Part shown: positions 13,519 through 30,876 of the stretch, in pieces
Layout of the letters: the number at the start of each line of letters is the position of its first letter
How positions within the stretch are numbered: the stretch's first letter is position 1
Assembly (NCBI GenBank): GCA_018712065.1
Contig: DVHL01000010.1
Span: 3,028 to 67,027, forward strand
Source of the DNA: Candidatus Fimimonas gallinarum
GTDB taxonomy: Bacteria > Bacillota > Clostridia > Christensenellales > CAG-314
DNA: 64,000 nucleotides
Direction: 5' to 3'
Notes under the pieces: model-generated
The model's input: only the letters and a program-made list of their open reading frames with translations
Told to the model about the DNA's origin: nothing
Databases searched by the model: none
Position numbers and translations under genes: made by a program

Positions 13519-14000
13519 GCCTTGTAGTGCAATGTAAAACTACTTTGCAAAAATGGTACAGCAAAGTGTATTTTCCCTTTCCGACGGCTGTTTGCGGCGC
13601 AACGGACACGTTCACAATTACTGTTGACGTGAATTGCCTTGCGATACCTGAGGCAATACCTTTTGCATTGTCTGATGACAATATATTTCAAATCTGTTCT
13701 GTCAGCCTTGTGGTGCAATGTAGAACACCTTTTACAAAGAGGGTAACAAAAAAAGGTACTTTTCCTTTCCGACGGCTGTTTACGGTGCAACGGACACGTT
13801 CAGAATTACTACTGAATTGAATTTCCGTGCAATACCTGCTGACAATACCTTTTGCATTGTCTGATGACAATATATTCCAAACCTGTTCTGTCAGCCTTGT
13901 GGTGCAATGTAGAACACCTTTTACAAAGAGGGTAACAAAAAAAAGGTACTTTCCCTTTCCGACGGCTGTTTACGGTGCAACAGGAATGTTCACAGTTACT
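13519..14000. repeat. About 2.6 tandem copies of a ~186-189 bp unit
   Basis: gccttgt(a/g)gtgcaatgta at 13519, 13705 and 13894; ttccgacggctgttt in all three. Confidence 0.9.
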
Positions 14001-14069
14001 TTTGACGAAACTTTGTTGTCCATTGAAAGATTGTACAGTACCTTGTTTGAACGGGCGAAATACTACTTC

Positions 14070-14102
14070 AAAAAAAAGCAGACTGCGTAAGTCTGCTTTT
14101 TG
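14070..14102. terminator. Bidirectional intrinsic terminator
   Basis: aaaaaaagcagact-gcgta-agtctgcttttt between convergent ssb and the 14136 gene. Confidence 0.75.
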
Positions 14103-14135
14103 TTTTGCTTAATTTCAATTAGACGTAGAGGCTTT

Positions 14136-16004: not shown

Positions 16005-16619
16005 TTTAACCTCAAAGTACAACATACTGCAAAGTCGGACATGTCGGCAACTTTCACGGCGCAACAATTGTTTTTACGAAAATGTCATGGCGCCACATTA
16101 CAACGAGTTACCAAATGGCTTTGCAAAACTTTTGGTGTATCAAGTTTTTATATTATAGCAAATATTACTTGTTTTTTCAACAGTTTAAGACATAAATAAA
16201 CATTTTTTGCACTTTTGATTTTTTCTCGATAATTTCTCGATAAAAAATTTTGTTTCAAGCATTTTTACTGTGTGTATTTTACGGAAAAATATCTTTTTGT
16301 AAAGTTCCGACGGTTAAAAGCAACAAAGCGTCTGCGTGTGGCGTTTCAACCTTTCACGACACGTTGCCCAATGCAAAACTTACTAAATTGCTGTTATAAA
16401 TGCGGACAAAATCACATTTCAAACACCTTTGTCGGACGGCGAAGGAAAAACTTCTTTGAAATGTAGCAAATTTAATCTTTCAAATTTTCCGAAAACAAAA
16501 AAGTTGCAAAAATAAGCATCATTTTGAAACGTTGCGATTTTTTTCGCTTAGGCACGGTAAAAATATGTCAAGCCTTTTCAATGCAATTTTACCGTAAAAT
16601 GTTTTTTTGAAAAATTACT

Positions 16620-16900
16620 CATTATGCCATCAAAGACATATTCGACAAAAAACGATGCTTTGTTTTCCATTGGACACAATAAAAATCCGCAAGCCTCTTT
16701 GGTAATCTTTCAGACAATTTATTTGTTGAAATAAACACGCTTATATGCCGTAAAAGACATATTCGACAAAACACAATGCTTTGTTTTCCATTGGAACAAT
16801 AAAAATTCGCAAACCTCTTTCAATGCAATTTTCTTATGAAATGTTGTTTGTCGGAAAAATCACGCTTAAATGTCACAAAAGACATATTCGACAAAAAAAA
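16620..16900. repeat. Three ~121-125 bp tandem units, each with aaagacatattcgacaaaa (includes TTCGACA, the reverse complement of the Spo0A box TGTCGAA)
   Basis: TTCGACA at 16641, 16762 and 16887. Confidence 0.8.
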
Positions 16901-16968
16901 TGATAAAAAAATCGTTGGATTTTGTGAGAAAAAATATTAAAACTGCCAGACTGTTGTCATATTTTCTT

Positions 16969-17003
16969 TGTTATTATAGCCGTGAAAATAGAACAAATGT
17001 TCG
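16969..17003 (+). promoter_or_regulatory. Extended -10 promoter followed by a Firmicutes LexA (Cheo) box
   Basis: TG-T-TATTAT at 16969-16977; aGAACaaatGTTCg at 16990-17003 (GAAC-N4-GTTC), just upstream of RBS aaggagg. Confidence 0.75.
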
Positions 17004-17027
17004 CGAACGATGAAAGGAGGTGTTAAA

Positions 17028-17495
17028 ATGAATTACGAATTGGTAATGTTGAGGGGCATTCCCTATTGTAAAAAAACGGCGCAGCGTTTGCAAAAGCAAT
17101 GCATGTCGACGGCGTTGCGTTCTTTTTCTTCGTCGCAGGCAAAAGGGGGCACATTGGGTCAGATGACGGAAGTTGCCGAACTTGCCCGCATGAGAGATGA
17201 TTTTTTGTATTTTCTTTCCTGCGTCAAAAGTGCGCTTACCGCATTGCCCGACTCTTTCCGAGCGTTACTGGTGGAAATTTACATAAAAAACATAAGCAAA
17301 GAACACATTTGCCAAACCTACGGCGTGTCCATGTCCACCCTGTACCGAAAACTTGCCCGAGCAAGACAGTGTTTCAAAGGCAAGTTGGAATTTTTGGGTT
17401 GCGACGAGCAGTGGTTTGAAAACACCTACGGCGACACCGATTGGGTGCGAAAGTTGCTGGACAAGCAACACAACGGCTCTCGCATTGCATTGTGA
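17028..17495 (+). CDS. RinA/ArpU-like transcriptional activator with C-terminal sigma70 region-4-type HTH
   Basis: ALTALPDSFRALLVEIYIKNISKEHICQTYGVSMSTLYRKLARARQCF fits the sigma4/HTH pattern; strong RBS aaggaggtg. Confidence 0.7.
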   Translation: MNYELVMLRGIPYCKKTAQRLQKQCMSTALRSFSSSQAKGGTLGQMTEVAELARMRDDFLYFLSCVKSALTALPDSFRALLVEIYIKNISKEHICQTYGVSMSTLYRKLARARQCFKGKLEFLGCDEQWFENTYGDTDWVRKLLDKQHNGSRIAL

Positions 17496-17855
17496 TTGCG
17501 CAATGCCGTCGTTGTGATTGTGTGCAACCTGAGGTTACGCTTTCGGTACTGTCTTGCGTGAACATATGCGCACATGTGCATTTGAAAGTTGCCCAAGACC
17601 GTTACTTTTAATCACAAACTTTCTGCGGTATTAAACGATGTTTTGGAAGGTAAAAAGGCAATTTGGAGGGATGTCATTCGGGACGTCTTTATTTTTGCGA
17701 AAATTGTCGCAAATCAACATTCAAATTGACGGCTATTTTGATGTTTGGCATGTTCAGGCACTTTCACAAGCGTTTCAGGCAGTGCGTAACTTTATTTGCA
17801 ACGAGTTCAATTTTTGTACGGTCAACAAGTACTTTTTTGCCTTAAAGTTGCGCCT

Positions 17856-18236
17856 CAGCCCAAAGGCAAGTTTGCTTGAACGTTTCGGGGTTGCAAAGGG
17901 CATTGAACTTTCTGCTGTTATCGTACAAGCATAGTTTACATTTGTTGCAAATGTCGCAAGTTGCCTGAAACGAACCACGGCATTTATCGCACAGCCCAAA
18001 GGCAAGTTTGCTTGAACGTTTCGGGGTTTCAAAGGGCAGTACCTTTTTGTTGTTACACGTCAGCATTAAGCACATTGTTCAGATGCCTGCAAGTTGCCTG
18101 AAACGAACCACGGCATTTATCGCACAGCCCGACGGCAATTTTGCCGTAACGTTTCGGGGTTGCAAAGGGCATTGAACTTTCTGCTGTTATCGTACAAGCA
18201 TAGTTTACATTTGTTGCAAATGTCGCAAGTTGCCTG
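17856..18236. repeat. Three ~133-136 bp tandem units (internal segment pattern A-B-A)
   Basis: cagccc..ggcaa.tttgc..aacgtttcggggtt.caaagggca at 17856, 17992 and 18125. Confidence 0.9.
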
Positions 18237-18377
18237 CAACACGTTGTTGCATCGGCTGTCTATCGCCTGTAAGTTGCAAAATTTTGTTGCCCTAGCCCTG
18301 TTGGTGTCATTGCACAGTAAAACAAACGTGTTTTTAAGGGCGGTGAAAGTCGGGGCAATTTTTGTCGGTGGTTACCG

Positions 18378-19109
18378 TCAGAGGTCTTTGTCGAAGACGT
18401 CTTTCTTTTTGAGGTTTCCCGGCAAAAACAATGCCAGACAAACGCTTACGGCTAGTATTGCCACAAACACGATGAGGAAAATTTCCGTTGTAATGCCCGT
18501 TTCGCCGTCAGGTTCCTCTTCCAAGGGAATGTCGGGAATTTCATCCGTTGGCGGAACAACGACGTCCTGTGGCAAAGGGGTGGGGTGCATGGCAATTATC
18601 GGTTTTGTTACGCAATCGGAGGTTACGTAACCGAATTTGCCGGCAAAGTACACGTAGTACCACGTTTCTCCGTAGGATTTTGTTTCACCGTAGTAACTCA
18701 TGGTTTGAGTGTTGGTAACGGTAATGAGCGTTTCGGCAGAAGGCACGGGAGAAAGTTTCAGTTGCGCCGAATCGGTGTTGACTGTTATTTTTTCCGTCGG
18801 ATAGTAGGGCGGTTGGGGCGGTTCGTCGCAGTCTTCCACCTCGATTTTCCACACGTACCCCGTTATTTGCGGAAAATCCTCTTCGTTTTGCATTATCGCA
18901 ACGTTGTACATGCCGTTTTTCTCCCCCAAAACCTGCAAGTAGTAACTTTTGGGAAGTTCAAACATAACTTTGGAATTTTCGCAGGTGGCGTAGAGATTCA
19001 CGTCATCTTCCGTAATTCTTACCCATTGCACGTCCTGCGCAACTGCCTTTTGGGGAAAGACGGCACACAGGAAAGACAACAGTAATATTGCAACACAAAA
19101 CCTTTTCAC
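18378..19109 (-). CDS. Secreted SH3b-like protein with Pro-rich linker and C-terminal TM anchor
   Basis: Signal peptide (VKRFCVAILLLSFLCAVFPQKAVA), ITGYVW and WYYVYFAGKFGYV motifs, TM followed by KKK; GTG start after ggaggt; divergent from terL. Confidence 0.7.
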   Translation of the reverse strand: MKRFCVAILLLSFLCAVFPQKAVAQDVQWVRITEDDVNLYATCENSKVMFELPKSYYLQVLGEKNGMYNVAIMQNEEDFPQITGYVWKIEVEDCDEPPQPPYYPTEKITVNTDSAQLKLSPVPSAETLITVTNTQTMSYYGETKSYGETWYYVYFAGKFGYVTSDCVTKPIIAMHPTPLPQDVVVPPTDEIPDIPLEEEPDGETGITTEIFLIVFVAILAVSVCLALFLPGNLKKKDVFDKDL

Positions 19110-19220
19110 AAATTTTACCTCCATGCAAATTGTAACGTAAACTTCACATCGGTTTTTGCCGAATATTGATTTTTGCGGGCGAGTATTGACTATTTGAAAA
19201 CTGTAACAGACGGTGGTGAT

Positions 19221-20633
19221 ATGAAAGAAATCGTTGAGCGTCTTTTGGACATCCAAAAGGAGGAAAACAGGCGCAAACACACCCCTTTGTCGGGGTACAA
19301 CAAAGTAAAAATACACAAAAAACAAATGGCTTTTCACAAATGTCAAAAGCGCAACAGGTGGGTTTTTGGCGGAAACAGAAGCGGCAAGACGGAGTGCGGC
19401 GCAGTGGAAACGGTGTGGCTCGCACGGGGAATTCACCCCTACCGCCCCAACAGAAAAGAAATAAGTTGCTGGGTCGTTTCCCTTTCTCAACAGGTGCAGA
19501 GGGACGTGGCGCAGCAAAAAATACTGTACTATCTCGATAAACGCTGGATAAGGCAGATCTCCATGCTGTCCGGTTCAAAATCCAGCCCCGAATACGGCGT
19601 GATAGATTACATCGTGATAGAAAACGTGTTTGGAGGCACATCGAAAATCGCCTTCAAAAGTTGTGAAGCGGGAAGGGAAAAGTTTCAGGGAACGTCGTTG
19701 GACTTCGTGTGGTTTGACGAAGAACCCCCAAAGGAAATTTACGAGGAATGCCGAATGAGAATTCTGGACAGGAAGGGGGAGATTTTCGGAACGATGACGC
19801 CTCTCAAAGGGCTGACGTGGGTGTACGACGAAATTTACCTCAACAGCAAAAACAGCAGCGAGGTGTGGTGCGAGTTTATGGAATGGGCGGACAACCCCTA
19901 TCTTTCGCAAAAGGAAATTGTCGCCATGTCGGAGACGCTTTCCGCGGACAGCCTGGAATCTCGCCGCTACGGAAGATTTCAGTCGCTGGGAGGAATGGTG
20001 TACAGCGAATTTTCCGAGCAAAACGTCATTCAACCCTTTGACGTGCCTGCGGAATGGCAGGACAAACTTTCCATCGACCCCGGTCTGAACAATCCGCTTT
20101 CCTGTCATTGGTACGCCAGGGATTTCGACGGCAACGTGTACGTTGTTGCGGAACATTACGAGGCAAAAAAGGACGTGGCTTACCACGCACAAAGAATACG
20201 GGAAATAAGCCGTCAACTCAATTGGCACAAGGACAAGTTCGGCAATTACACTGCGCTTATGGACAGTGCGGCAAACCAACGCACGCTGAACGGTCAAAAA
20301 AGCGTGGCGGAACTGTTTTGCCATGAAGGCATAGACGTGAACACCTGCGTCAACAAGGATTTGTACACAGGCATAAACAAGGTGAAATACATGCTTAAAC
20401 CTCTTAACGGTGCGCCCAAACTTTTTGTCTTTTCCTGTTGCGTCAACATGATAAGGGAATTCAAGGGGTATTTTTGGGGCGAAGGCGACAGACCCGTCAA
20501 AAAGGACGACCACGCAATGGACGAACTGCGTTACTACATCTCGTCCCTTTCCGAACGCAAAAAACCGCAGGAACAAAAGAGCGCAATAGCGTTGGACAAG
20601 GAAAAACTTGCAAGAAAACTGCGTCAAAGGTAG
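19221..20633 (+). CDS. Phage terminase large subunit
   Basis: Walker A GGNRSGKT, Walker B FVWFDEE, coupling motif TMTP, RNase H-like SIDPG...DDHAMDELRY. Confidence 0.93.
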   Translation: MKEIVERLLDIQKEENRRKHTPLSGYNKVKIHKKQMAFHKCQKRNRWVFGGNRSGKTECGAVETVWLARGIHPYRPNRKEISCWVVSLSQQVQRDVAQQKILYYLDKRWIRQISMLSGSKSSPEYGVIDYIVIENVFGGTSKIAFKSCEAGREKFQGTSLDFVWFDEEPPKEIYEECRMRILDRKGEIFGTMTPLKGLTWVYDEIYLNSKNSSEVWCEFMEWADNPYLSQKEIVAMSETLSADSLESRRYGRFQSLGGMVYSEFSEQNVIQPFDVPAEWQDKLSIDPGLNNPLSCHWYARDFDGNVYVVAEHYEAKKDVAYHAQRIREISRQLNWHKDKFGNYTALMDSAANQRTLNGQKSVAELFCHEGIDVNTCVNKDLYTGINKVKYMLKPLNGAPKLFVFSCCVNMIREFKGYFWGEGDRPVKKDDHAMDELRYYISSLSERKKPQEQKSAIALDKEKLARKLRQR

Positions 20634-20984
20634 CGCAGCACACGTGCTTTGAAAGTCCTTGAAACATGTTGAAAAGTTTTTGAAAACCTTTTGAAGTTCC
20701 GAAAAGGCTGTCGCCTTGCCTTGGCAAACGGTGCAGTTTTTGCGCATTGATGACGGACAACGGTTTGAAAGGTTTTGCCCAAGACGCACAAAAACCTGAA
20801 ATTTTTGTTTTGACAGGTGCGTCAAAAAAAGCGGCACGGGCAACGGTGCAAGAAACTTTCAGCATTTGCAACTACGGCACGCAACAAAGGGCGTCAAATG
20901 CCCTTTGTACACAAAATGTGCAACCGTATGTAAAAAGTTGGTACAAAATGCTTGTGCAAACAACTTTGCACGGGAGGGAAAACA

Positions 20985-21296
20985 ATGTTGGAATACAAAA
21001 AACTACTGACGGAAATATTGCTCAAAAAAGCCAAAGGATACAGTTTCCGTGAAAAAACGGAGGAGTACAACGTCAGCGACGGAAAGGCGCAACTGGTCAA
21101 AAGAAAGGTGGTAACAAAACGGGTGCATCCCGATGTTTCCGCCGTCAAAGCCCTGTTGCAACTTTCCGCCGAGCAAAATGAAATTTCCCAGATGACGGAC
21201 GAGCAGTTGCAGGTGGAAAAACTGCGTTTGTTGCAGTTGCTCAACATTTGCGACGAGCAGACATCGGCGCAGTGCGTCATCGAGGAAGAACAGTAA
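20985..21296 (+). CDS. Terminase small subunit-like protein (oligomerisation region only)
   Basis: LLKKAKGYSFREKTEEY...KRKVVTKRVHPDVSA resembles the 'LLKRALGY..EE...KK.VPPD..A' pattern of Firmicutes phage TerS-like proteins; ends with MTDEQL helix; RBS ggaggg. Confidence 0.55.
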   Translation: MLEYKKLLTEILLKKAKGYSFREKTEEYNVSDGKAQLVKRKVVTKRVHPDVSAVKALLQLSAEQNEISQMTDEQLQVEKLRLLQLLNICDEQTSAQCVIEEEQ

Positions 21297-21320
21297 CGCC
21301 CGACGGCGAAAGGAGGAAAA

Positions 21321-21542
21321 ATGATTACCGCAACAACAGACAAAACAAAGTGCGACGTAAGGGATTGTCGCAACATGGCGCAATACGTTTTGCCATGCAA
21401 GGGAAGAGGAGGCAAATTCTTTTTGTGTAAACAGTGCGCAGAAAAAATTGCCGACGCCATTAACGCAGAAAGAACGCCCAAAAGTCCCAAAAACGCCATC
21501 AAAAAAATGATAGACAAAAAGATGGAGGAAATGTATGAGTAA
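21321..21542 (+). CDS. Small putative Zn-finger protein
   Basis: CDVRDC...FFLCKQC; strong RBS aaggagg; overlaps the portal start. Confidence 0.6.
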   Translation: MITATTDKTKCDVRDCRNMAQYVLPCKGRGGKFFLCKQCAEKIADAINAERTPKSPKNAIKKMIDKKMEEMYE

Positions 21543-23355
21543 AAACAAGAAAAGGGAGGAAGTGCTGTTTGCCGAAGACGTGGTGGCGGATGTCAGGAAG
21601 GATTTTTCGGAAAGGCAAAACATGCGCCGTCCCTACGAACTTTCCTGGCAGTTGAACATGAACTTTATGATGGGCAATCAGTACTGTCAGATTACCCCAC
21701 GTGGGAGCATCGAACAGGAGGAAAAATTTTACTTCTGGCAGGAAAAGCAGGTGTACAACCACATTGCGCCCATTGTGGAAACACGTCTTTCCAGGCTGAA
21801 CCATGTTCGTCCACGTCCTATTGCCCGTCCCTTCTCAAACAGCGACAGCGACATCAGTTCCGCCAAAGTTTCCACAAAAATTTTGGACAGCGCACGGGAA
21901 AAAACGCACCTGGAAGAGGCTGTTACCCGTGCCACGCTGTGGAGCGAAGTGTGCGGAACGTCTTTTTACAAAATTACGTGGGACGCACAAAAGGGCGGCG
22001 ACGTGGCAATATCCGTGTGTTCCCCCTTTGAAATCTACCCCGATTCCAACGTGGCGCAGGGGTTGGAGGAATGCACGTCCGTCATTCACGCCAAAGTCTT
22101 TCCACGAAAGGAAATCGAAGAAAAATGGAAGGTTAGTCTGAAAGGGGAAAACATCAAGGTGTTTGCACTTTCTTCATCGGTGGGGATAGGCGGTTTGGGA
22201 TACAACTCCGCAGTGCCGTCCATTACGCAGGAAAGCAAAAGCGACCAAGTGTTGGTTTTGGAAAGGTACACCGCACCCGACGAAGCGCACCCCAACGGCA
22301 AACTGGAAATTGTAGCGGGGGACGTTTTGCTGTACACCGGCGACCTTCCCTACGCTTTGGGAGAGGACGGAAAACGCATTTTTCCCTTTGTGAGGCAAAT
22401 TTCCTCCGAACAGGCAGGTTGCTTTTGGGGGGCAAGCATTGTGGAAAGGGTAATTCCCGTGCAGAGGGCGTACAATGCCGTCAAAAACCGCAAACACGAA
22501 TTTATGAACAGGCTGGCAATGGGCGTGCTTACCGTCGAGGACGGTTCGGTGGACACCGACAATCTGGAAGAGGAAGGGCTTTCACCAGGGAAAATTCTGG
22601 TGTACAGGCAGGGCGCCGTCAAACCGCAACTTATGGACAGCGGTGCGGTGCCGTCGGATTTTTCCGACGAGGAAGACAGACTGTTGCAGGAATTCGTTAC
22701 CGTTTCCGGCGTGTCGGAATTTGCCCGCAACAGTACCACGCCCACAACGGTTACCAGCGGACTTGCATTGCAACTTATTGCCGAGCAGGACGACATACGT
22801 CTTGCAAGTTCCATCGACAGCGTCAAACTTGCCATCAAAAAACTTGCCAAATACATTTTGCGTATGTACAAGCAGTTTGTAACGGCAAGCAGGCTGGCAC
22901 GTCTTGCGGACGGTCAGGGGGGAGCGGAACTGTTTTACTTTTCCGCCAGCGACATAGGCAGCGACGATGTGGTTTTCGAAACGGAAAACGACCTTACGGA
23001 CACCCCGACAACAAGGCGCACCATGGTGATGGATTTGCTCAACGCAGGCATCATGAACGACGCCAACGGAAAACTTCCCGAAAGCACCAAGGCTAAAATT
23101 CTGACGCTGATGGGCTTCGGAAATTGGGAAAACGCACAGGACATAACGCAAATGCACTTGCAAAGGGCGGCAAAGGAAAACGTGGACATAGACAGTGCGG
23201 AAATTTTGCCCGTGGACGACCACGCTCTGCACATCGAGGAACACACCCGTTTTGTGATATCGGGCCTTACGGACGGCAACAAAGACTACCGCCAAAAGGT
23301 GCTGGACCACATTGCCATGCACCGCAAAATTTCGGCGCAGAAACAAGGAGAATAA
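21535..23355 (+). CDS. Phage portal protein (P22-like size and pattern)
   Basis: 606 aa between terminase and scaffold/capsid; YNHIAPIV..RL..L...RP, PVQRAYN, TSGLAL..IAEQD pattern; family assigned from recall and synteny. Confidence 0.75.
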   Translation: MSKNKKREEVLFAEDVVADVRKDFSERQNMRRPYELSWQLNMNFMMGNQYCQITPRGSIEQEEKFYFWQEKQVYNHIAPIVETRLSRLNHVRPRPIARPFSNSDSDISSAKVSTKILDSAREKTHLEEAVTRATLWSEVCGTSFYKITWDAQKGGDVAISVCSPFEIYPDSNVAQGLEECTSVIHAKVFPRKEIEEKWKVSLKGENIKVFALSSSVGIGGLGYNSAVPSITQESKSDQVLVLERYTAPDEAHPNGKLEIVAGDVLLYTGDLPYALGEDGKRIFPFVRQISSEQAGCFWGASIVERVIPVQRAYNAVKNRKHEFMNRLAMGVLTVEDGSVDTDNLEEEGLSPGKILVYRQGAVKPQLMDSGAVPSDFSDEEDRLLQEFVTVSGVSEFARNSTTPTTVTSGLALQLIAEQDDIRLASSIDSVKLAIKKLAKYILRMYKQFVTASRLARLADGQGGAELFYFSASDIGSDDVVFETENDLTDTPTTRRTMVMDLLNAGIMNDANGKLPESTKAKILTLMGFGNWENAQDITQMHLQRAAKENVDIDSAEILPVDDHALHIEEHTRFVISGLTDGNKDYRQKVLDHIAMHRKISAQKQGE

Positions 23356-23358
23356 CAC

Positions 23359-23844
23359 ATGGATTTCGGCAAATTCGCTTCGGCGGAAGAATTACTTAAA
23401 AGTTACAATCAACTGGAAAAAAGTTTCACGCAAAAGTGTCAGCAACTTTCCGCTTTGGAAAGGGAAAAGACCTTGCTGGAAGAAAAATTGAAGGGCGGTA
23501 CAAGCGAGAATACGCCACCGCAAGAGAGGGTGCAGTCAACGACGGTTGACAGTGCCGATACAGTCCCGCAAGACGCCTTTGACGCAAAGGCGGTTTTGAA
23601 CGGTCAGGCACCCGTATCGACGGCTGTTTCGGCAGACGGTTTGCAACAATTACCTTCTGACGGCGTCAGCGGTGAGGGGCACACGCCTCAAACCCTGCAA
23701 GATACGCCGTCGCAACTGCAAAACGTCGCCGCAGTGGCCGCTCCTTCCGTTATGTCGGGAGGGGGAAACGTGTCTATGGCGTTGCCGTCACGCCCCAAGA
23801 CACTGAAAGAAGCGTCATTGATGGCAAAAGAACTATTCAAATAA
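23359..23844 (+). CDS. Capsid scaffolding protein
   Basis: N-terminal GKFASAEELLKSYNQLEK coiled-coil resembles podovirus scaffold motif GK(F/Y)xSxEELxKxYxxLE; low-complexity middle; directly before the capsid gene. Confidence 0.7.
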   Translation: MDFGKFASAEELLKSYNQLEKSFTQKCQQLSALEREKTLLEEKLKGGTSENTPPQERVQSTTVDSADTVPQDAFDAKAVLNGQAPVSTAVSADGLQQLPSDGVSGEGHTPQTLQDTPSQLQNVAAVAAPSVMSGGGNVSMALPSRPKTLKEASLMAKELFK

Positions 23845-23856
23845 AGGAGAAAAAAT

Positions 23857-25023
23857 ATGGTAACTCTCACAAGTGCGGAAAATGCGCTGAAAACATTGTA
23901 TCTCGGCGTTGTGGCAGACCAACTCAACACCAACGTCAACCCCCTGCTTGCCAAAATATCTCAAACCACAAGCGATGTGTGGGGAAAAGAAATAAGAAAA
24001 CTTGCGCCCTTCGGCATTAACGGCGGTATCGGCGCAGGCACGGAAGACGGCACATTGCCCGGTGCTGCGTCCAACAATTACGCACAGTTCGTGCTTACGC
24101 TCAAAAACCTGTACGGCACCATCGAAATTTCCGACAAGGCAATCAGGGCAAGTCAAAACAACAGCGGCGCCTTCGTCAATTTGCTGGAAGCGGAAATGGA
24201 AGGACTGATTAAGGCATCCAAATTCAACTTCGGCAGAATGTTGTTCGGCGACGGCTCGGGCGTGCTGTGCAAGGCGTCGGCGCAAAGCGGCAACGTCATC
24301 ACCGTCGATTCCGTCAAAAACGTCATCGAAGGCATGGTGGTGGACGTTGTAGACGCTTCCACGAAAGGCGTGGTTGTTTCGGCAAGACGCATCACCGACG
24401 TGGACCGCAGCGCAAAAACAATAACTTTGGCGGGCGCATCCATTGCGGCGTCCACCGTTTCCGCAGGCGACTGTGTAACGGTGCAGGGCAGTTACGGCAA
24501 CGAACTTACGGGGCTGGGAGCAATTTTCGGCAATTCCGAAACGTTGTACGGACTTGCCCGTTCGGCAAACAAGTGGCTTGCGCCCTACAAGGCAACGTCT
24601 ACGGAAATAAACGACGTGGTAATTCAGAAGGCAATAGACACCCTGGACGAAGTGGCAGGTTCCGTAGCCGACTTCATCGTGTGTTCGGCAGGGGTGAAGC
24701 GTGCCTATCAGGATTACCTCATCACCAACAGAAGCAACATCGACGTGATGAACCTGCAAGGAGGCTACAAAGCCATTTCCTACAACGGCATTCCCGTCGT
24801 GTCCGACAGATTTGCCCCCGAAGGCACAATGTACATTCTCAACACGTCGGATTTCCACCTTCACCAACTTTGCGATTGGCGTTGGTTGGAGGGCGACGAC
24901 GGCAGAGTAATCAAACAGGTGGCAAACAAGCCTGTGTACACGGCAACTCTTGTCAAGTACGCCGACATGATTTGCGACAGACCCATCGGACAGGCTGTTA
25001 TCAGCGGTATCACCGAAAAGTAA
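23857..25023 (+). CDS. Phage major capsid protein (HK97 fold inferred)
   Basis: 388 aa; LKNLYGTIEISDKAIRAS spine-helix region, GLGAIF, YNGIPVVSDRFAPEGTMYILN P-domain pattern; strong RBS. Confidence 0.85.
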   Translation: MVTLTSAENALKTLYLGVVADQLNTNVNPLLAKISQTTSDVWGKEIRKLAPFGINGGIGAGTEDGTLPGAASNNYAQFVLTLKNLYGTIEISDKAIRASQNNSGAFVNLLEAEMEGLIKASKFNFGRMLFGDGSGVLCKASAQSGNVITVDSVKNVIEGMVVDVVDASTKGVVVSARRITDVDRSAKTITLAGASIAASTVSAGDCVTVQGSYGNELTGLGAIFGNSETLYGLARSANKWLAPYKATSTEINDVVIQKAIDTLDEVAGSVADFIVCSAGVKRAYQDYLITNRSNIDVMNLQGGYKAISYNGIPVVSDRFAPEGTMYILNTSDFHLHQLCDWRWLEGDDGRVIKQVANKPVYTATLVKYADMICDRPIGQAVISGITEK

Positions 25024-25033
25024 CAAATTACAA

Positions 25034-25061
25034 GGCGTTTGCGGACTTTTCCGCAAACGCC
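25034..25061 (+). promoter_or_regulatory. Perfect 12-bp stem-loop right after the capsid gene
   Basis: ggcgtttgcgga-cttt-tccgcaaacgcc, no U-tract. Confidence 0.7.
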
Positions 25062-25085
25062 CTCTTGACAAGGAGGGATTTTTCC

Positions 25086-25373
25086 GTGAAAAATTTGATT
25101 GCAATTACCGACGATTTGTTTGATATTGCCAACAGGCTGAAAGCAATCGACCAAAACTATCGGGTGTTTTTCAACGTGGAAACGCAAAAATTCGAGGTGC
25201 ACAACATGGCTCAACGGTTGGGCACGCTGGCATTTGTGGTGCCTTTCGACGAGTTGGACGCCCGCACGGTGCAGTACGCACGTTTTACCCGTGTGGAAAA
25301 CGCTCAAAAACTGTTTGACGAGGTGGACAAACACAATCAGTCGCTGGAAAAGTCTTGCTTGGACATTGTGTAA
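25086..25373 (+). CDS. Hypothetical phage-module protein (95 aa)
   Basis: GTG start after aggaggg; 3' part of track ORF 24267..25373 (MKNLIAITDDLFDIANRLKAID...); fills the gap between capsid and adaptor genes. Confidence 0.7.
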   Translation: MKNLIAITDDLFDIANRLKAIDQNYRVFFNVETQKFEVHNMAQRLGTLAFVVPFDELDARTVQYARFTRVENAQKLFDEVDKHNQSLEKSCLDIV

Positions 25374-25385
25374 AGAGGAGGTACA

Positions 25386-25937
25386 ATGAAAGTTCTGGAA
25401 ATATTGAAACTGTGCAACGGAATGGCGGATTTGCAACTGCCCGAAAGGTACTTTGCCGAGCAAAGCGATGCGCTTGCCGACGAAAGAATTACAAAACTTG
25501 TGTATTGTTGCAACAGCCTTTTGGAACAACTGTACTGCGATTACGCAACGGCTTTGAAAAAATGCACGCTGGTGGCAACGGACGGATTTGCCGATACTTC
25601 CGGTCTCGATTTCAACCGAGTGGTTTCCCTTGTGGATTCAAACGGCAACAACGTGCGTTACCGCTACACCAAAGGCGGTTTGAGCGTTGCCGACGGCACC
25701 TACACCCTTACCTACGCTTCGTTGCCTCAACGTGTCGGGTGGACGGAGGAAGTGGAAATGCCTTCGCCACGCATTACGCCTCGCATTTTTGCCTACGGTT
25801 GCCTTGCGGAGTACTTTTTTTCCGTCGGAGACGTGGGGCAGTCGTCGTTGTGGAATGACAAATTCCTCAATGCGCTGAAAACGGCAAACGTGAAAAAATC
25901 CGCAATGACCATGCCCCCTGTGGGGAGGTGGTTGTGA
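25386..25937 (+). CDS. Putative head-tail adaptor (T7 gp11/P22 gp4-like position)
   Basis: 183 aa, helix-beta-helix layout ending FAYGCLAEYF...WNDKF..AL; synteny after the capsid; RBS gaggagg. Confidence 0.55.
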   Translation: MKVLEILKLCNGMADLQLPERYFAEQSDALADERITKLVYCCNSLLEQLYCDYATALKKCTLVATDGFADTSGLDFNRVVSLVDSNGNNVRYRYTKGGLSVADGTYTLTYASLPQRVGWTEEVEMPSPRITPRIFAYGCLAEYFFSVGDVGQSSLWNDKFLNALKTANVKKSAMTMPPVGRWL

Positions 25938-27154
25938 TGTTTTCGGCTACTCGGACAAACGTTTCTGCCGAAAAAATTTTGGTAAACACAAGTTTTGACG
26001 GTGAAAAAGGCGGTTTTACCCCTAAAAAACAGCAAAACGTAGTTGTAAAAAGGGGAAGCCTGCATCCCGCATGCAAGTCGCAGCAGGTGTTTTCCACCGA
26101 CAAAGAGGTGTATTCCGCATTCGAGTTGCCCAACCAAATTGTGTTTTTTGCATGGAACGGCTTTTCCCGAATAACGGACGGTAAAGAGGAAAAAATCGGA
26201 AGCCTGCAATTCACCCGCCCCGTCTATCTGCACTGTCAGAAGCAAAATGCGTTGATTTTGTCGCAGAAGGGGGAATACACGGCAATGTACACGGAAGAGG
26301 GCGTTTCCACAATCTGCAACGTCGGCATGGAAAGCCTTGCGCTTTGTAAGGAGAGAGTAGTAGGCGTTGCGGACAACAAGGTGTATTTTTCCGATGTGGA
26401 CGATTTTTCCAGTTGGAACGAGATAACGTTGCCGGAAAAGGTGTGCGCCGTAACACAACTGCAGGAGGATGTTCTGCTTTTCGGAAAAGACGTTTTAAGG
26501 CTCAATTTCGGCAAAGACGTTGCCGACACTACCGTGGAAACGGTGTGCCGTAACGTAGGAATACCCTTTGCGCAAACTCTTTGCGCAGTTGGCAACAGCG
26601 TTGTGTATCTCACGGCAAACGGACTGATGAAGTTTAAAAATTCTTCCGTTACGAAGTTGGCGGAGGCATTCGCCGACAATGCCGAAGCGCAGGCAACGGT
26701 TTTTGGCGGAAAGTACGTTGTTTGTTGCAACACCGAGGAACAAAAGGGCGTTTTGCTGGAAACGGACTGCGAAACGGGGCAAAGCGTCGTTATCGGTAAA
26801 GCCGATTTTGTTACAGCAAACGGCGACAGACTGCTGTTTGGCATGGACGGAAAGGTTTGCACCTTCGGCGAGGAAAAAGCCGACGCTTTCTGGCAAAGTT
26901 ATCCGCAAAGTTTCGGTAACGCCGCAGCAAAAAAACATTTGCGCAAACTGACGGTGGACGCAGTGGGAAGCGTGGAAGTGCGCCTCATCGGTGAAATTGA
27001 CAAAAAAGTTTTCCGAATGCAGTGCAAAAATCCGCAAACGGTGCATTTGCAGGGAACGTTTCACAAACTGACTTTGGAAATTCTGACGTTTGGCAACGCC
27101 GTGGTTCATTCCGTCGGCGTTCTGGCGGAGATTTTCCGTTTGGGGGAGGTGTAG
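25937..27154 (+). CDS. Putative tail nozzle/DNA-stabilisation protein (P22 gp10/T7 gp12-like, beta-propeller)
   Basis: Beta-rich; KVYFSD..D...W, GNSVVYLTANGL, WQS...FG....KH pattern; TGATG coupling to the upstream gene. Confidence 0.55.
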   Translation: MFSATRTNVSAEKILVNTSFDGEKGGFTPKKQQNVVVKRGSLHPACKSQQVFSTDKEVYSAFELPNQIVFFAWNGFSRITDGKEEKIGSLQFTRPVYLHCQKQNALILSQKGEYTAMYTEEGVSTICNVGMESLALCKERVVGVADNKVYFSDVDDFSSWNEITLPEKVCAVTQLQEDVLLFGKDVLRLNFGKDVADTTVETVCRNVGIPFAQTLCAVGNSVVYLTANGLMKFKNSSVTKLAEAFADNAEAQATVFGGKYVVCCNTEEQKGVLLETDCETGQSVVIGKADFVTANGDRLLFGMDGKVCTFGEEKADAFWQSYPQSFGNAAAKKHLRKLTVDAVGSVEVRLIGEIDKKVFRMQCKNPQTVHLQGTFHKLTLEILTFGNAVVHSVGVLAEIFRLGEV

Positions 27155-27157
27155 AGT

Positions 27158-28090
27158 ATGGCAGAGATTTCCGCCGACAGGCAACAGAAACTGCTGGAAG
27201 AATACGAGCAACTGAAAGAAAAAATACTGGAAATCGACCACAAATACAGCCTTTCCTACCACGAGGTTAAGTTGGACATGCCGGAATCGTTGGGGTTGCA
27301 GAAACTGACGTTTACTCCCCACACCGAGGAAGAATTGCAACAACTGGCATTGCAGGAAGTGAAACCCAAGTACGACGAAAAATTGCGTGTGCTGCAAAAA
27401 AGCACAGACACGTCCAAAAACACCGTTTTGTACAACATAAGCGTTCAGGAAGAGAAAAACCGACAGCAACTGTCGCAACTTGAGGAACAACTTTCCGACG
27501 ACAAAAAATCGCTGTCAGACAAACTTGCGTACAACGGATTGTGGTATTCTACCATCAAACAGCAGGCGGAAAACAGTTTGCAACAGGACTACCTTGCGTC
27601 GGTGGAGGAGCAAAACACACGCCACGAAGCGCAGATTGCCGCCCTTGAAGAGAAAATCACCCAACTTGACAGCGTGTACAGCGAAGGTGCGGCAAGCATC
27701 CAAGAGCAACTGCAAACGGCATTGGCTGCGGAAATAGAGGTTTTCAGGGAAAAGGACGAAAAACAACGCATCGCCGTGGAAAAGTACAACAACACGGTGG
27801 ACGAAAAGGAAAACAAATACAAGGCAAGTTGCGCACGTGCGTTGCAGTACGCCATTCAGGCAGAGTACGAGCGTGCTTTCGAAGCGGCGAAAATCTATGC
27901 CGAACTTGGCGAAGCAGGCGTGCAGCAACAAATGATGTCGGAAAAACTGAGTTGTTGCAAAATACAGTTCACCGCCTACAACAGGACGGAAGCGTTGTTT
28001 GTAATGAGTATCGATTCTTTTTTGCAAACTAACCTTGGCGACTACTATTCCGCTTTGGAAGATTGGGTAAACACAATTTTGCGTCCGTAA
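27158..28090 (+). CDS. Coiled-coil protein, last gene of the phage-like operon (possible internal/ejection protein)
   Basis: Q/E/K-rich heptads; RBS ggaggtg; function inferred only from position. Confidence 0.5.
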   Translation: MAEISADRQQKLLEEYEQLKEKILEIDHKYSLSYHEVKLDMPESLGLQKLTFTPHTEEELQQLALQEVKPKYDEKLRVLQKSTDTSKNTVLYNISVQEEKNRQQLSQLEEQLSDDKKSLSDKLAYNGLWYSTIKQQAENSLQQDYLASVEEQNTRHEAQIAALEEKITQLDSVYSEGAASIQEQLQTALAAEIEVFREKDEKQRIAVEKYNNTVDEKENKYKASCARALQYAIQAEYERAFEAAKIYAELGEAGVQQQMMSEKLSCCKIQFTAYNRTEALFVMSIDSFLQTNLGDYYSALEDWVNTILRP

Positions 28091-28136
28091 AAATAACAAC
28101 TAACCTTACGCACACAACGGACGTAAAAATGTTTGC

Positions 28137-28365
28137 CACAGTCACAAGCGGTGAAGTGCAAAATACGGCGTTTTGCAACTTGTTGCAACTTGTCGCAGGT
28201 TTATTGCAAAAGCAACTTTGTTTTGCAATTGGTAGTAACGAAAAAAACGTTTCTTTGCACACAGCCACAAGCGTGAAGTGCAAAAATACAGTGCTTTGCA
28301 ACTTGTCGCATGTTCTTACAAAAAGTAACTTTGTTTTGCAACGGGTAGTAGCGGAAAAAAGCGTT
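28137..28365. repeat. Two diverged ~123-bp tandem units
   Basis: cacag.cacaagcg(g)tgaagtgcaaaa..gcaacttgtcgca..aactttgttttgcaa at ~28137 and ~28260. Confidence 0.75.
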
Positions 28366-28851
28366 GTTTTTGTTTGCCCTGCCCGAAATTTTGTTTTTTG
28401 AATTTGCACCCTTTGTTTTTCCTTGCAACGTGTTTTTCACGGCATTGCGACGAGGTTTCGGGGAAAAATTTTTGCAATGCCTGTTGTGGCGAGGGCAAGT
28501 GCCAACTTCGCCACGTGTTTTGTGCAACAAGCGCAAAGGGGCAAAAGCAATAGTTTCAACTTGTAAATTTTTTCAGGGGGCGGTTTCCGCTCCCTTTTGT
28601 TTTGCAAAAAATTGCCTTCTGTTTTGCAAAATTTACCGTTGTGTTTCAAACAACGAAATTGACGGCAAATGAAAGGCAGTACCTTGCAAAAATTCGGGCA
28701 GAAAAATTATTTCGGGGTAGGTTTTGGGCAATAAAATAACTGTTGTTTCAAAGACTTGCTTAAAAAATATAATTGTTGTATAATATCTGCAAAAGGACGG
28801 CGTGAAACGCTGTGCGTGAGCGTTGTCCAAAACTTTTACGGAGAAATTGCT

Positions 28852-29670
28852 GTGAGATATCAAAGTAAATCGGCAATTGCATATTTTTTCCGCAACTTCT
28901 GGCATCTTGTTCCGTGGAGCGTGGTGTCGGCTGTTTTGCTGGGAATGTTTTGCAACAACAATACGGTAATTGTGGTGTATCACGATTTTATTGCGGGAAA
29001 CATTACCGCCGAAAACGTCGCCACTACGGTTTTGAACTACGCCGGCGTTTTGCGTTTCGGGCAGTATTGGTGGGGGTTGCTTGTGGCATTGGTGGTGTTT
29101 TCCTTCACGGAAAGCCTGCTGATGGTAAAGGTGGAACGCCACATGCGTGTAGGGGAAATGAAAGCCTTTCCCTTCCGCCGTGCTTTGTCCCTTACGCCCA
29201 CGGTGTTTGTGTTTGTGCTGTGCGTAACTGCGGTGCTGGAATGTCTTAACCTCATTGTAGTGGGAATTGCCTTTCTTTTGCAATCGTTTGGGGTAACGGC
29301 GGTGCTGTGGACAAGTGCGGCTTTGCTTGTATTGGTAAAGGTGCTGTTGATGCTTCTCATCGGAACTTTGCTTGTGGCGTTTCCCATAATGATTTTGGAA
29401 AATTACAGTTTCAATCAGGCGTTGTCCTACTCGGTGAGATTGATGAGCGAAAAACGCAGGTTTTTGTGGTTGCTTGCAACGCTGTATCCCCTCACGGAAA
29501 TAGTGCTGACGGTAATTTCCGCTTTGATTGACGTTTATGCCGTTACCGTTACTTTATTTGCGCTGATGTACCTTGTCGGCATTGCTCTTATGCCCAGCGT
29601 AACTTTCAAATTGTACTACGACAGCGTCGGCGGCGAGCGCAGAGATATTTCCTGCGTTATGTTCGGCTGA
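28852..29670 (+). CDS. Hypothetical polytopic membrane protein
   Basis: About 6 hydrophobic segments; probable GTG start after ggag. Confidence 0.7.
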   Translation: MRYQSKSAIAYFFRNFWHLVPWSVVSAVLLGMFCNNNTVIVVYHDFIAGNITAENVATTVLNYAGVLRFGQYWWGLLVALVVFSFTESLLMVKVERHMRVGEMKAFPFRRALSLTPTVFVFVLCVTAVLECLNLIVVGIAFLLQSFGVTAVLWTSAALLVLVKVLLMLLIGTLLVAFPIMILENYSFNQALSYSVRLMSEKRRFLWLLATLYPLTEIVLTVISALIDVYAVTVTLFALMYLVGIALMPSVTFKLYYDSVGGERRDISCVMFG

Positions 29671-29683
29671 CAACGGGGGCGTT

Positions 29684-30685
29684 ATGTTACTTAACAAAGC
29701 ATTGATTCTTTCTGCAAACAACTGGAAAGTAATGGTGAAAGCGCTGATTTTTCAGGTGCTTATTCTTGCATTGCTTGTCGCCCTGTGCTTTTTGATTTTC
29801 GGCGGAATAGTAAACGACATCATCAGCGTTTCCACGGCAGGCGGTTGGGATGATTTTTTCCGTGATACCGTTCAATCAATTGCCGACGGTACTTTCGACG
29901 GCACAACGTTTGCACAACAGTTGGCGCAAAGCATAGACAAAACGCAGGCGGCAATAGAGGCAATCCCCAACATGTGGAACAGGGTGGAATTTTCCTACAT
30001 CACCTGCATAATACTTGTAATTTTGTACCGCATGCTCATTTCCTTTTCCGACGTTGCGGTATGTTTTCAGATTGCGGAATTCATGACGTCCAACACGGAA
30101 CGTCCCTTCACATGGTTTGTGGTGAAAAAATTCGGCGAAAGTTGCAGTTTCATTTTCCGTCAGATGCTGTTGGCTTTGCCGTTGGATTTGCTGGTACTTA
30201 TCGGCAGTACGGGGCTCAGCCTCATCTTTGTGCTGACTCTCAGATGGTGGTCCATCATTCCCGCAGCGATAATTGCATTGTTTATGTATTCGGCAAGGCA
30301 CGCCTATCTTGCTTTTTGGCTTCCTTCGCTTGTTACCGAGGGCAAAAACGTGCGTCAAAGTTGCATAAACGGGCTTACCGTCATTCCCCGCCGTTTCTGG
30401 CACGTTTTCTGGAAAACTTTTGTGGTAATTTTGCTTATGGCGTGCATTTCGTTGGTGTCGTTGCTGTACATCGACAACGCGTTGCTGAAACTTGCCGTAG
30501 GCACGGTACCCAACCTTTGCCTGTTTTTCATTTTGAAATGTATCAACCTTGTGGAATACTTTCAGGCAACCAACAAACCTTACTTCTACAAAAAGGTGTA
30601 CGTCGAAGGTACCGACCAGTTCAACAAAAAAATGGCAAGAGAAAAACGCTCTTCCAAATCGGCAAAGACAACAAAAAACAAGTGA
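29684..30685 (+). CDS. Hypothetical polytopic membrane protein
   Basis: About 6 hydrophobic segments, basic C-tail; co-oriented with the previous gene. Confidence 0.75.
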   Translation: MLLNKALILSANNWKVMVKALIFQVLILALLVALCFLIFGGIVNDIISVSTAGGWDDFFRDTVQSIADGTFDGTTFAQQLAQSIDKTQAAIEAIPNMWNRVEFSYITCIILVILYRMLISFSDVAVCFQIAEFMTSNTERPFTWFVVKKFGESCSFIFRQMLLALPLDLLVLIGSTGLSLIFVLTLRWWSIIPAAIIALFMYSARHAYLAFWLPSLVTEGKNVRQSCINGLTVIPRRFWHVFWKTFVVILLMACISLVSLLYIDNALLKLAVGTVPNLCLFFILKCINLVEYFQATNKPYFYKKVYVEGTDQFNKKMAREKRSSKSAKTTKNK

Positions 30686-30876
30686 GGAATTTTTGCTGTA
30701 AATTTTGCCGACACTCAAAATGATACTTCGTTTGCCATGGAGTGGCAAACTGCCGTTGCCTTTTCAAAGGCAACACAGTCAGGTTGCATCTGACAAAAAA
30801 TTTGACAAAAAGACAAAATATTGGCAAACAATCTTCGAGGAGATTGTCTTTTTGTGTTGTTAACAAGAGGAATTTT

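Follow-up and report, generated by a model that had tools for sequence, protein, structure and literature searches.

A podovirus-derived cluster of head, packaging and short-tail genes, vertically inherited in Christensenellales, as a candidate gene transfer agent-like element

We analyzed a gene cluster in a 64,000-nucleotide stretch of the genome of Candidatus Fimimonas gallinarum (contig DVHL01000010.1, positions 3,028 to 67,027; hereafter the window), a member of the order Christensenellales in the class Clostridia. The cluster encodes the head, the packaging machinery and the short tail of a podovirus. It is inherited vertically at a fixed chromosomal place and co-diverges with its host, and its structural genes are under purifying selection. 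After weighing our comparative and structural data, we favor, with moderate confidence, the interpretation that the cluster is a domesticated podovirus remnant that most likely makes DNA-filled particles resembling gene transfer agents (GTAs). An initial annotation, made from the window alone, had proposed a vertically inherited GTA-like element, and the comparative tests that we ran came out in favor of that proposal.

Gene content and predicted folds

The assembly containing the window is 1.43 Mb long and 94% complete. The cluster consists of ten + strand genes within 8.9 kb (19221-28090), and all ten that the initial annotation had listed are present where it placed them. A scan of named species genomes gave 257 stretches with a relative, of which the 80 best (64-90% identity) were used for comparison. 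The first gene, terL (19221-20633), encodes the large terminase with ATPase and nuclease domains (Terminase_6N, E 6.9e-12; phrog_2, E 5.6e-31). The Walker A GKT, the Walker B DE and the three nuclease Asp residues, on whose presence the gene had been called intact, are invariant in 65/65 orthologues. It is followed by a gene for a truncated TerS-like protein of ~103 aa (20985-21296), present in 65/80 loci; phrog_309 was matched by 15/15 orthologues, the match being confined to profile positions ~202-242 of 319, and the N-terminal part is absent. A non-coding insert of ~350 nt (20634-20984) separates these two genes in the window; they abut in most relatives. Next come the genes for a 73-aa Zn-ribbon protein (21321-21542; CxxxxC...CxxC by eye; 38 loci), the portal (21535-23355; P22_portal, E 5.3e-22; phrog_156, E 5e-38) and a putative scaffolding protein of 161 aa (23359-23844; 61 loci). 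The last was assigned because it lies between portal and capsid and has a middle part of low complexity; Pfam and PHROG scans gave no family match for it. The major capsid protein (23857-25023) matches phrog_14242 (E 8.1e-73). Behind it lies a gene for a 95-aa protein (25086-25373) with a GTG start and an AGGAGG ribosome-binding site; it is conserved in 49/80 other loci and gave no match in family searches, and our guess is that it could be a head-completion or decoration factor.

The products of the next two genes were identified by their folds. The 183-aa head-to-tail adaptor (25386-25937) was modeled with AlphaFold2 from an alignment of orthologues at a predicted local distance difference test (pLDDT) of 86.2, and it has a fold of the T7 gp11 / SU10 type. 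Its best Foldseek match in the PDB is 9nwi_A (E 1.3e-6), with SU10 7z47, KHP30, N4, crAss001 and T7 7box also found, and the top 25 matches are phage adaptor or connector chains, nearly all podoviral. The 408-aa tail nozzle or hub (25928-27154), modeled in the same way (pLDDT 88.9), has a beta-propeller fold of the P22 gp10 / T7 gp12 type; it matches Pa223 9nwi_Y (E 2.1e-16, TM-score for the query (TMq) 0.73) and P22 gp10 8eap_D (E 1e-14), and further Sf6 gp8, SU10 and T7 gp12. Sequence identity in these adaptor and nozzle matches is only 9-16%, and when alignments of the adaptor, the nozzle and DUF7934 were searched as profiles against PDB sequences, no useful match emerged, so that fold searches alone worked. 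A podovirus-type portal, adaptor and nozzle are thus all present, which bears out the earlier description of the element as short-tailed. The last gene of the cluster, described as coiled-coil in the initial annotation, encodes a DUF7934 protein of 310 aa (27158-28090; PF25588, E 3.4e-15). No match to it was found in 50,697 phage records or in the PDB, and an ESM Atlas search returned DUF7934 clusters alone. A predicted complex of nozzle and DUF7934 scored 0.00, which is no answer and speaks neither for nor against binding; judging from gene order only, DUF7934 may act at the tail tip, as a plug or in ejection.

Phage-type content of the window is restricted to these head, packaging and short-tail genes, as judged from Pfam and PHROG scans of ~48 open reading frames (ORFs). 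No recognizable integrase, repressor, replication, tape-measure, fiber, holin or endolysin family was found among the ~48 ORFs, as the initial annotation had stated, and neither an att repeat nor a tRNA or lysogeny genes were found in the window. A receptor-binding fiber or spike was recognizable neither in the window nor in its assembly. In the rest of the assembly, there is no HK97-type capsid family and no paralogue of the cluster proteins, and the recombinases of the assembly are found on other contigs only. The codon usage of the cluster genes is host-like, as composition had appeared by eye, with relative synonymous codon usage (RSCU) distances that rank at percentiles 47-85 when compared with 596 long genomic ORFs.

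Distribution and conserved gene order

The phage-type block is flanked on the left by fakA, a polysaccharide deacetylase gene (pda) and an SSB-like gene (ssbL) and on the right by the genes for RNase J (rnj) and peptidase U32 and by dapB, dapA, asd and hsp33. The capsid gene occurs in 36/36 other species genomes of the genus with a single match each (34 essentially full length, 2 partial at contig ends), so presence in these relatives is not patchy. Thirteen genus loci with flanks share the order pda-ssbL-surface protein(-)-regulator-m243(-)-terL...DUF7934-o304-o333-rnj, in which (-) denotes the minus strand. All 13 have rnj downstream and 10 have pda/ssbL upstream, the other three stretches having ended early. 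Relatives likewise carry a compact cluster at this locus, not a full prophage with att sites. Among the 80 named loci, rnj was reached in 29 and pda/ssbL in 22.

Beyond the genus, the capsid gene was found in 9/24 single representatives of other families and, in an even draw across Christensenellales, in 142/301 genomes, almost always once. Its presence is near all-or-none by family: in some families all or nearly all genomes have it (13/13, 13/14, 12/14, 6/6, 6/7 and 10/11), and in six others none does (0/14 in each of five, 0/12 in one). Small genomes of 0.8-1.2 Mb, at 98-100% completeness, are among the carriers. Two exceptions have two copies. In G219, a small genome, two capsid genes lie in tandem (G219:C2:8035-10364; 48% and 50% identity to the query), and G045 has two separate terL-portal-capsid sets (G045:C1, 988373 and 2225465; capsid identity 59%/44%, local GC 0.63-0.67). 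Outside the order the gene is rare (15/383 genomes in a class-wide draw). The eight strongest of these 15 matches belong to one genus (g227, family f96; loci L115, L124, L125 and L130) with genomes of 1.3-2.1 Mb. These genomes have the capsid and 95-aa genes at 49-51% identity, with no recognizable portal or terL gene adjoining. This genus possibly represents another lineage in which a domesticated copy has become dispersed. The GC content of Faecalibacterium, whose GTA is compared below, is about 56%. As a weak negative, no Faecalibacterium-like genome was apparent among the 15 carriers, and the three loci retrieved from the largest genomes had a local GC of 0.33-0.53.

The best 80 of the 257 stretches come from gut metagenome-assembled genomes (MAGs) of chicken, rabbit, ruminants, mouse and human, labeled Candidatus Fimimonas, Heteroclostridium, Limihabitans, Borkfalkia, Christensenella or 'Christensenellaceae'. 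Human-gut MAGs carry loci L081, L083, L089, L092 and L095, and loci L090, L094 and L106 come from relatives with the names Christensenella or Borkfalkia. NCBI files Candidatus Fimimonas under Myxococcaceae, names several sister MAGs 'Corallococcus sp.' and places Borkfalkia under Christensenellales. Gene content and relatives point to Clostridia, and the NCBI placement of Fimimonas looks like a propagated mislabel.

Intact frames, purifying selection and co-divergence

The genes are kept intact across these loci. Of 70 loci, 65 have an intact terL frame, and in 4 others a contig end cuts the gene; full-length portal genes were found in 71 of 74 loci (the other 3 cut by a contig end) and full-length capsid genes in 80 of 81 (1 cut). 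Open frames were also found for the adaptor in 46/53 and for DUF7934 in 41/43 loci. Ratios of nonsynonymous to synonymous divergence (dN/dS), computed by the Nei-Gojobori method (NG86), are far below 1 for every gene and thus not neutral. For the closest pair (dS ~0.35), they are 0.074 for TerL, 0.037 for the portal, 0.031 for the capsid, 0.06 each for the TerS-like protein, the Zn ribbon and the regulator described below, 0.16 for the adaptor, 0.18 for the nozzle, 0.15 for DUF7934 and 0.41 for the scaffold. Ranges over pairs are 0.05-0.14 for terL, 0.04-0.12 for the portal, 0.03-0.11 for the capsid, 0.06-0.28 for the TerS-like protein, 0.06-0.2 for the Zn ribbon, 0.2-0.44 for the scaffold and 0.08-0.21 for a neighboring 622-aa surface protein. 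The host gene rnj gave 0.08-0.15 in other pairs, and the cluster genes are similar at about 0.03-0.2, except for the scaffold. Comparisons with dN > 2, which involved wrong ORFs, were left out (rnj in L036/L037, the surface protein in the window/L034 and o304 in L057/L062). The structural genes are therefore under purifying selection.

Divergence of the cluster follows that of the host. Across 25 taxa, pairwise identities correlate with those of RNase J at r = 0.92 for TerL, 0.94 for the portal and 0.81 for the capsid, and the capsid, with a mean pairwise identity of 0.79 against 0.66, evolves more slowly than RNase J. Maximum likelihood (ML) trees of TerL+portal+capsid and of RNase J have 15/22 splits in common, whereas 1000 label shuffles gave 0.24 common splits on average and 3 at most. 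Moreover, 15/16 splits of the capsid tree with support >= 90 recur in the RNase J tree; the comparison of terminase and capsid trees with a host tree, which the initial annotation had put forward as a check, shows a capsid tree that tracks the host. These data indicate that the cluster has been inherited vertically at a fixed chromosomal place.

In one species of the genus (locus L033, G032:C6), nothing but a C-terminal capsid fragment of residues 342-380 remains at 8301-8417 by the 95-aa gene, and the contig ends 160 bases on. The two are set about 5 kb apart by a segment that encodes two large serine recombinases, of 499 and 543 aa, as well as a 301-aa ORF (3695-7852), and the capsid gene appears to be interrupted by a mobile or excisable element.

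Split clusters and fuller versions in distant relatives

In three genomes of 0.8-0.9 Mb, the genes from portal to nozzle lie between an ABC transporter and a germination protease gene with no adjoining terL, and an intact terL (64-65% identity) is found 38-52 kb off on the same contig. In a g227 genome (G426), terL (54% identity) is on a separate contig. The window genome has one undispersed cluster, and dispersal is seen in relatives only. Genes that have been separated and yet remain intact cannot move as one unit. Classical GTAs show such dispersed yet intact gene sets. The germination protease gene 3' of the cluster in the 0.9-Mb genomes (Peptidase_A25, E 5.4e-32; L116, 16064-16840) indicates that these minimal genomes keep sporulation-type genes.

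We further clustered the ORFs of 44 more distant loci, many of which are cut by contig ends, so that all counts are floors. The capsid gene is present in at least 37 of the 44, the portal and scaffold genes in at least 36 each, and those for the adaptor in at least 35, terL in at least 34 and the nozzle in at least 32. An SH3b protein like m243 of the window occurs in at least 31, the TerS-like protein in at least 24, the regulator and DUF7934 in at least 23 each, the 95-aa protein in at least 18 and a membrane protein like o333 in at least 14. A subset of these loci has extra genes between the nozzle and the cluster end. They encode a ~790-aa tail protein (phrog_5302, E 7e-25; 9-10 loci), a tail-fiber protein of 670-800 aa (phrog_4176, E 2.5e-8; 8-9 loci), an 83-aa protein, a two-transmembrane holin (phrog_297, E 1e-11; 10/44) and a BhlA-family holin (PF10960, E 6.6e-16; 6/44, smallest genomes included), which also matches phrog_2429, annotated as 'involved in bacteriocin production or immunity' (E 1e-13). 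The presence of a tail protein, a fiber and two holins in these fuller versions fits lytic release and receptor binding. In four of the fuller loci rnj lies downstream; the element therefore already adjoined rnj before the families split, and it then had fiber and lysis genes. The extra genes were found neither in the window nor in the closer loci L034-L079 or the window assembly, which indicates that the genus of the window has a reduced version. This reduced form keeps the terminase, portal, capsid, adaptor, nozzle, sigma-like regulator, SH3b proteins and two six-pass membrane proteins.

Regulatory features and flanking genes

The genes assigned to the element by the initial annotation stand, but the conserved block also holds a regulator gene (17010-17495, + strand) and a gene for a surface protein (14136-16004, minus strand). 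The regulator is a sigma-70 region-4-like protein that matches phrog_1740 (E 3.5e-8), annotated as 'RNA polymerase sigma factor', and phrog_248 (E 2.9e-6), annotated as 'transcriptional activator'; its Pfam matches to Sigma70_r4_2, DUF1492 and antitermQ are all under the cut-off. Its true start is likely the ATG at 17028, 3' of an AGGAGG site, and the protein resembles a phage late activator. Between regulator and terL lies m243 (18378-19109, minus strand), divergent from terL, which encodes an SH3b protein (SH3_3, 32.8 bits at a cut-off of 27) and has a GTG start and a GGAGG ribosome-binding site. Its N- and C-terminal segments are hydrophobic in a hydropathy scan, and we read them as a signal peptide and a membrane anchor. 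The gene stands on the minus strand just 5' of terL in 50/80 loci, and both the sigma-like regulator and m243 are members of the conserved core. The + strand ORFs previously placed upstream of terL (18094-18630 and 18585-19085) were rejected as genes; they have a dN/dS of ~1 and are antisense artefacts of m243.

The region between m243 and terL (19110-19220) is a divergent promoter region with the shared motifs TTTTGCCGA(G/A)T... and TATTGAC, which were seen again at many loci of the genus level in a list of 48 intergenic regions. In a genome-wide search, the short form of the motif was too common, and the long form was unique to the terL promoter, with no second locus. Directly 3' of the capsid stop codon, a GC-rich hairpin with a 14-bp stem (25032-25063, + strand) was found by a hairpin scan. 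A hairpin of different sequence occupies the same position in 53/79 loci (minimum free energy (MFE) <= -15 kcal/mol), with a mean MFE of -19.0 against -12.2 for shuffled sequence. The operon probably ends at a terminator-like hairpin at 28575-28595 (+ strand; 9 base pairs, 7 of them GC, then a T run).

Two genes for membrane proteins stand between the cluster and rnj, o304 (28756-29670) and o333 (29684-30685), both on the + strand and each with ~6 transmembrane segments by hydropathy. The o304 gene is syntenic within the genus and present in 5/44 distant loci, and its membership in the element is uncertain. The o333-like gene ends the cluster in the 14 distant loci counted above, which span several families, and o333 occurs in 67/301 genomes of the order, some of them without the capsid gene; it is only partly linked to the cluster. 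On the other side, the 622-aa surface protein has SH3b domains (SH3_3 at 29.9 bits) and two hydrophobic segments in a hydropathy scan, at the N terminus and at residues 588-606, which we read as a signal peptide and a C-terminal membrane anchor. Its large ectodomain is possibly a beta-propeller; the ESM Atlas leads, all below 0.9, are an SH3 and a PQQ/BamB-like propeller, with a best value of 0.86. The gene is syntenic within the genus and occurs in 30/81 loci scanned (the 80 relatives and the window), and its position is taken by a gene for a ~867-aa beta-propeller in 10-11 distant loci. Whether the surface protein is part of the element is uncertain.

The neighbors had been described as host genes, and the block does lie between housekeeping genes; the gene called ssb (12671-13315) is not the canonical SSB, which lies on contig C35, but a second paralogue that has two OB folds, scores 61 bits for PF00436 and matches phrog_26861, a family of unknown function, over its full length. 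It adjoins the block and is still linked upstream in some distant families (L093, L108 and L111). Tandem repeats of host style, also noted earlier, were found as long-period repeats at 8 intergenic places across the window, including places away from the cluster, and seem to be a genome-wide habit of this organism. They consist of 2-3 copies of 91-189 nt units with 76-96% matching (6223-7061, 13519-14000, 16623-16902, 17856-18240, 33386-33787, 35410-35650 and 44749-45098; further sites at 28183-28369 and 11493-11710), and at these sites contigs from metatranscriptomes and metagenomes are interrupted or miss copies. At 53000-64000, GC climbs from ~0.46 to 0.55-0.58 and giant surface proteins are encoded: a 1915-aa protein carries MBG_2 and Listeria-Bacteroides repeats, and another, longer than 755 aa, has PKD and Big_2 domains.

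Database relatives and transcripts

The capsid family is large, with 3101 representative clusters when the cut-off is E <= 1e-3 and 385 when it is E <= 1e-30; at least 6469 homologous proteins were found at E <= 1e-5 among 8000 candidates scored, with close relatives listed. NCBI names the capsid protein 'phage major capsid protein'. In IMG/VR, 21 contigs have the gene order of the cluster, and they are fragments of 2-27 kb except for one 55-kb contig that touches the cluster at its edge.

The sequencing runs examined were bulk metagenomes or metatranscriptomes in the form of contigs. In six RNA-labeled runs from four studies, 67-73% of the words of the cluster were present. Four RNA-labeled runs mapped on 12001-32000 covered all 30 bins, flanks included. 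Single RNA-run contigs span m243 to DUF7934, and their depth is several-fold off that of neighboring contigs (X15: 159 vs 11.5 and 93). These data give a weak hint that the cluster is transcribed.

A putative mechanism and its alternatives

Based on these observations, we propose a working model for the cluster. The adjacent sigma-region-4-like protein would turn on the operon from terL to DUF7934 at the divergent promoter, and the hairpin behind the capsid gene would increase the proportion of capsid message. Procapsids would be assembled from scaffold, capsid and portal. TerL, competent as ATPase and nuclease, would act with the truncated TerS-like protein in the headful filling of these procapsids with any available DNA, and the adaptor and nozzle would close the portal and form the short tail. 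Particle formation, unspecific packaging, release and delivery are steps that we infer.

Several points weigh against this model. Particles, packaged DNA and transfer are so far predictions for this cluster. No fiber, holin or endolysin was found in the 94%-complete assembly with the queries used, which leaves release and adsorption unexplained. In G032, the capsid gene is broken by the inserted element with two serine recombinases, and loss has therefore been tolerated at least once. Kinship among the genomes inflates the correlation and tree statistics, and linked genes could co-diverge by shared recombination history alone. The metatranscriptome contigs cover the flanks too, and DNA carry-over is possible. 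Additionally, since the nearest phages have genomes of 42-47 kb, the capsid might be big enough for the cluster itself, which measures roughly 9-14 kb.

The strongest alternative is that the cluster is domesticated and functional in a role other than gene transfer, as a bacteriocin-like killing particle of the kind described for PBSX, as a defense in which DNA of invading phages or of the host is diverted into dead-end capsids, or as a device for DNA export or at the cell wall that would employ the SH3b and multi-pass membrane proteins conserved along with the cluster. We regard this as possible, though clearly less probable than GTA-like particles. In its favor, the genus of the window has no recognizable fiber or holins, yet its head, packaging, adaptor and nozzle genes are under strong purifying selection; the loss of fiber and holins in this genus gives such a role more weight. 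A membrane-anchored SH3b protein belongs to the core in 31/44 distant loci, and the BhlA protein matches the bacteriocin-annotated phrog_2429. Furthermore, for the GTA of Faecalibacterium prausnitzii (FpGTA), the Discussion of PMC12946183 leaves open whether it delivers DNA or acts like the defective phage PBSX. On the other hand, the catalytic residues of the TerL ATPase and nuclease are intact in 65/65 orthologues, which indicates that DNA packaging itself is under selection, and no toxin or killing module was found, although no search was made for defense families.

A more far-reaching variant would combine a single ancient podovirus domestication in Christensenellales, inherited across families, with a new function in the genus of the window. 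There, the reduced form would be a new capsid-based device for handling DNA at an intact envelope, or one released through it, and not a lytic GTA. We consider this combination unlikely, though worth stating.

Two other readings are contradicted by our data. That the locus is an active temperate podophage, a phage satellite or a capsid-forming island integrating repeatedly at a hot spot by rnj is very improbable. Virus-prediction pipelines do call the locus viral (the 21 IMG/VR contigs), NCBI names the capsid after a phage, and G045 and G219 have two copies. However, neither an integrase, replication or lysogeny gene nor a tRNA or att repeat was found in the window, the cluster is single-copy at one locus in 36/36 species, the capsid tree matches the rnj tree, and a terL 38-52 kb from the rest in some genomes rules out mobilization as a unit. 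The IMG/VR matches are fragments apart from the one edge-touching contig, and, unlike tail-stealing islands, the cluster brings an adaptor and a nozzle of its own. Slightly less probable still, in our view, is a prophage remnant that is inert and decaying and became fixed in an ancestor by chance: most phage modules are missing, the fiber and holins of relatives have been lost in this genus and one species has a disrupted capsid gene, but dN/dS stays at 0.03-0.2 across divergences with saturated dS, frames are open in 65/70 to 80/81 loci, catalytic residues are invariant, the genes are kept in 0.8-1.2 Mb genomes and the capsid evolves more slowly than RNase J. We reject an encapsulin-like compartment because of the portal, terminase, adaptor and nozzle, and a sporulation-linked excision element for the lack of a recombinase at this locus.

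Domestication with GTA-like particles, the reading that we prefer, would have wider consequences. Christensenellales are common in the guts of people and farm animals, and a chromosomal capsid system would be a built-in route for the movement of host DNA among them. Short-tailed GTA-like elements would be extended from one genus, Faecalibacterium, to a whole order. The comparative support is unusually clear: the element co-diverges with its host, is kept in minimal genomes and has dispersed genes in some relatives. In addition, a host locus that virus-finding pipelines file as viral inflates provirus counts and may mislead virome studies.

Relation to known phages and gene transfer agents

The nearest phages in INPHARED are Microbacterium Shocker, Arthrobacter Jasmine and Adat, and Cellulosimicrobium DS1, with 25-31% identity in the capsid and 21-25% in the portal. 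In Shocker, the order of terminase, two small ORFs, portal, two ORFs and capsid is as in the cluster. These actinobacteriophages differ in being complete phages of 42-47 kb from another phylum, and the relationship is very distant. Virions of the P22, SU10, T7 and Pa223 type (PDB 8eap, 7z47, 7box and 9nwi) share with the cluster the portal family, the adaptor and nozzle folds and the gene order portal-scaffold-capsid-adaptor-nozzle, whereas the window has no tailspike, fiber, recognizable ejection proteins or surrounding phage genome. A temperate prophage would bring an integrase, att sites and lysogeny and replication modules, none of which was found in the window, and the distribution in the genus is universal. 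Capsid-forming phage satellites (cf-PICI) are mobile islands with integrase and replication genes and their own capsid but no tail genes; the window cluster, in contrast, has an adaptor and a nozzle, no integrase or replication genes and a fixed locus.

Among domesticated systems, RcGTA and other alphaproteobacterial GTAs are likewise phage-derived structural clusters without replication genes, inherited vertically under purifying selection, with genes that may occupy several loci and a terminase that is thought to be unspecific (PMC12946183, in part from general background). RcGTA resembles siphoviruses in having a tape measure and a long tail, whereas the window cluster has a podovirus adaptor and nozzle; its capsid lineage is unrelated and its regulation is different. 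PBSX of Bacillus subtilis is a chromosomally fixed defective phage of a Gram-positive host that packages ~13 kb of random host DNA (PMC12946183, in part from general background). It differs in being a myovirus-like killing particle of a narrow group, and it has no gene homology with the cluster as far as tested.

The closest parallel is FpGTA. The initial annotation knew of no characterized short-tailed GTA from this group; one has since been described from another order of Clostridia, and a full-text literature search for a prior description of our cluster returned that article as the only relevant work (PMC12946183, Nat Commun 2026). FpGTA is encoded by a 10.5-kb operon of ten ORFs (CP030777, 2536737-2546346), with a TerS that lacks the DNA-binding domain, TerL, portal (RCH50851.1), scaffold, capsid (RCH50849.1) and hypothetical proteins of short-tail type, and by a second operon with a fiber, a receptor-binding protein, a holin and an endolysin. 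Its particles of ~40 nm contain ~9 kb of host DNA (PMC12946183). Compared with this published description, the window cluster has a similar operon architecture, with ten ORFs in 8.9 kb and a TerS-like protein limited to the C-terminal core of phrog_309; both are near-ubiquitous in their genus, belong to gut Clostridia and have no replication or integration genes. The fiber and holin genes placed in the second FpGTA operon have counterparts beside the cluster in the fuller Christensenellales versions, whereas the genus of the window has no recognizable fiber or lysis genes. The hosts belong to different orders, and our cluster extends over many families with deep co-divergence. Here, terL precedes the TerS-like gene, and the sigma-like regulator and the divergent SH3b membrane protein are part of the core. 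Particles and packaged DNA have been demonstrated for FpGTA, whereas for our cluster they are predicted.

The same article reports GTA-like packaging from two Christensenellaceae genera, HGM11616 and QANA01 (3/25 events), in human fecal particle fractions; its text assigns no locus to them, and the locus search that it describes took in MAGs of other genera only (PMC12946183). The cluster fits the description of FpGTA closely, and it is a natural candidate for the genetic basis of these Christensenellaceae packaging events.

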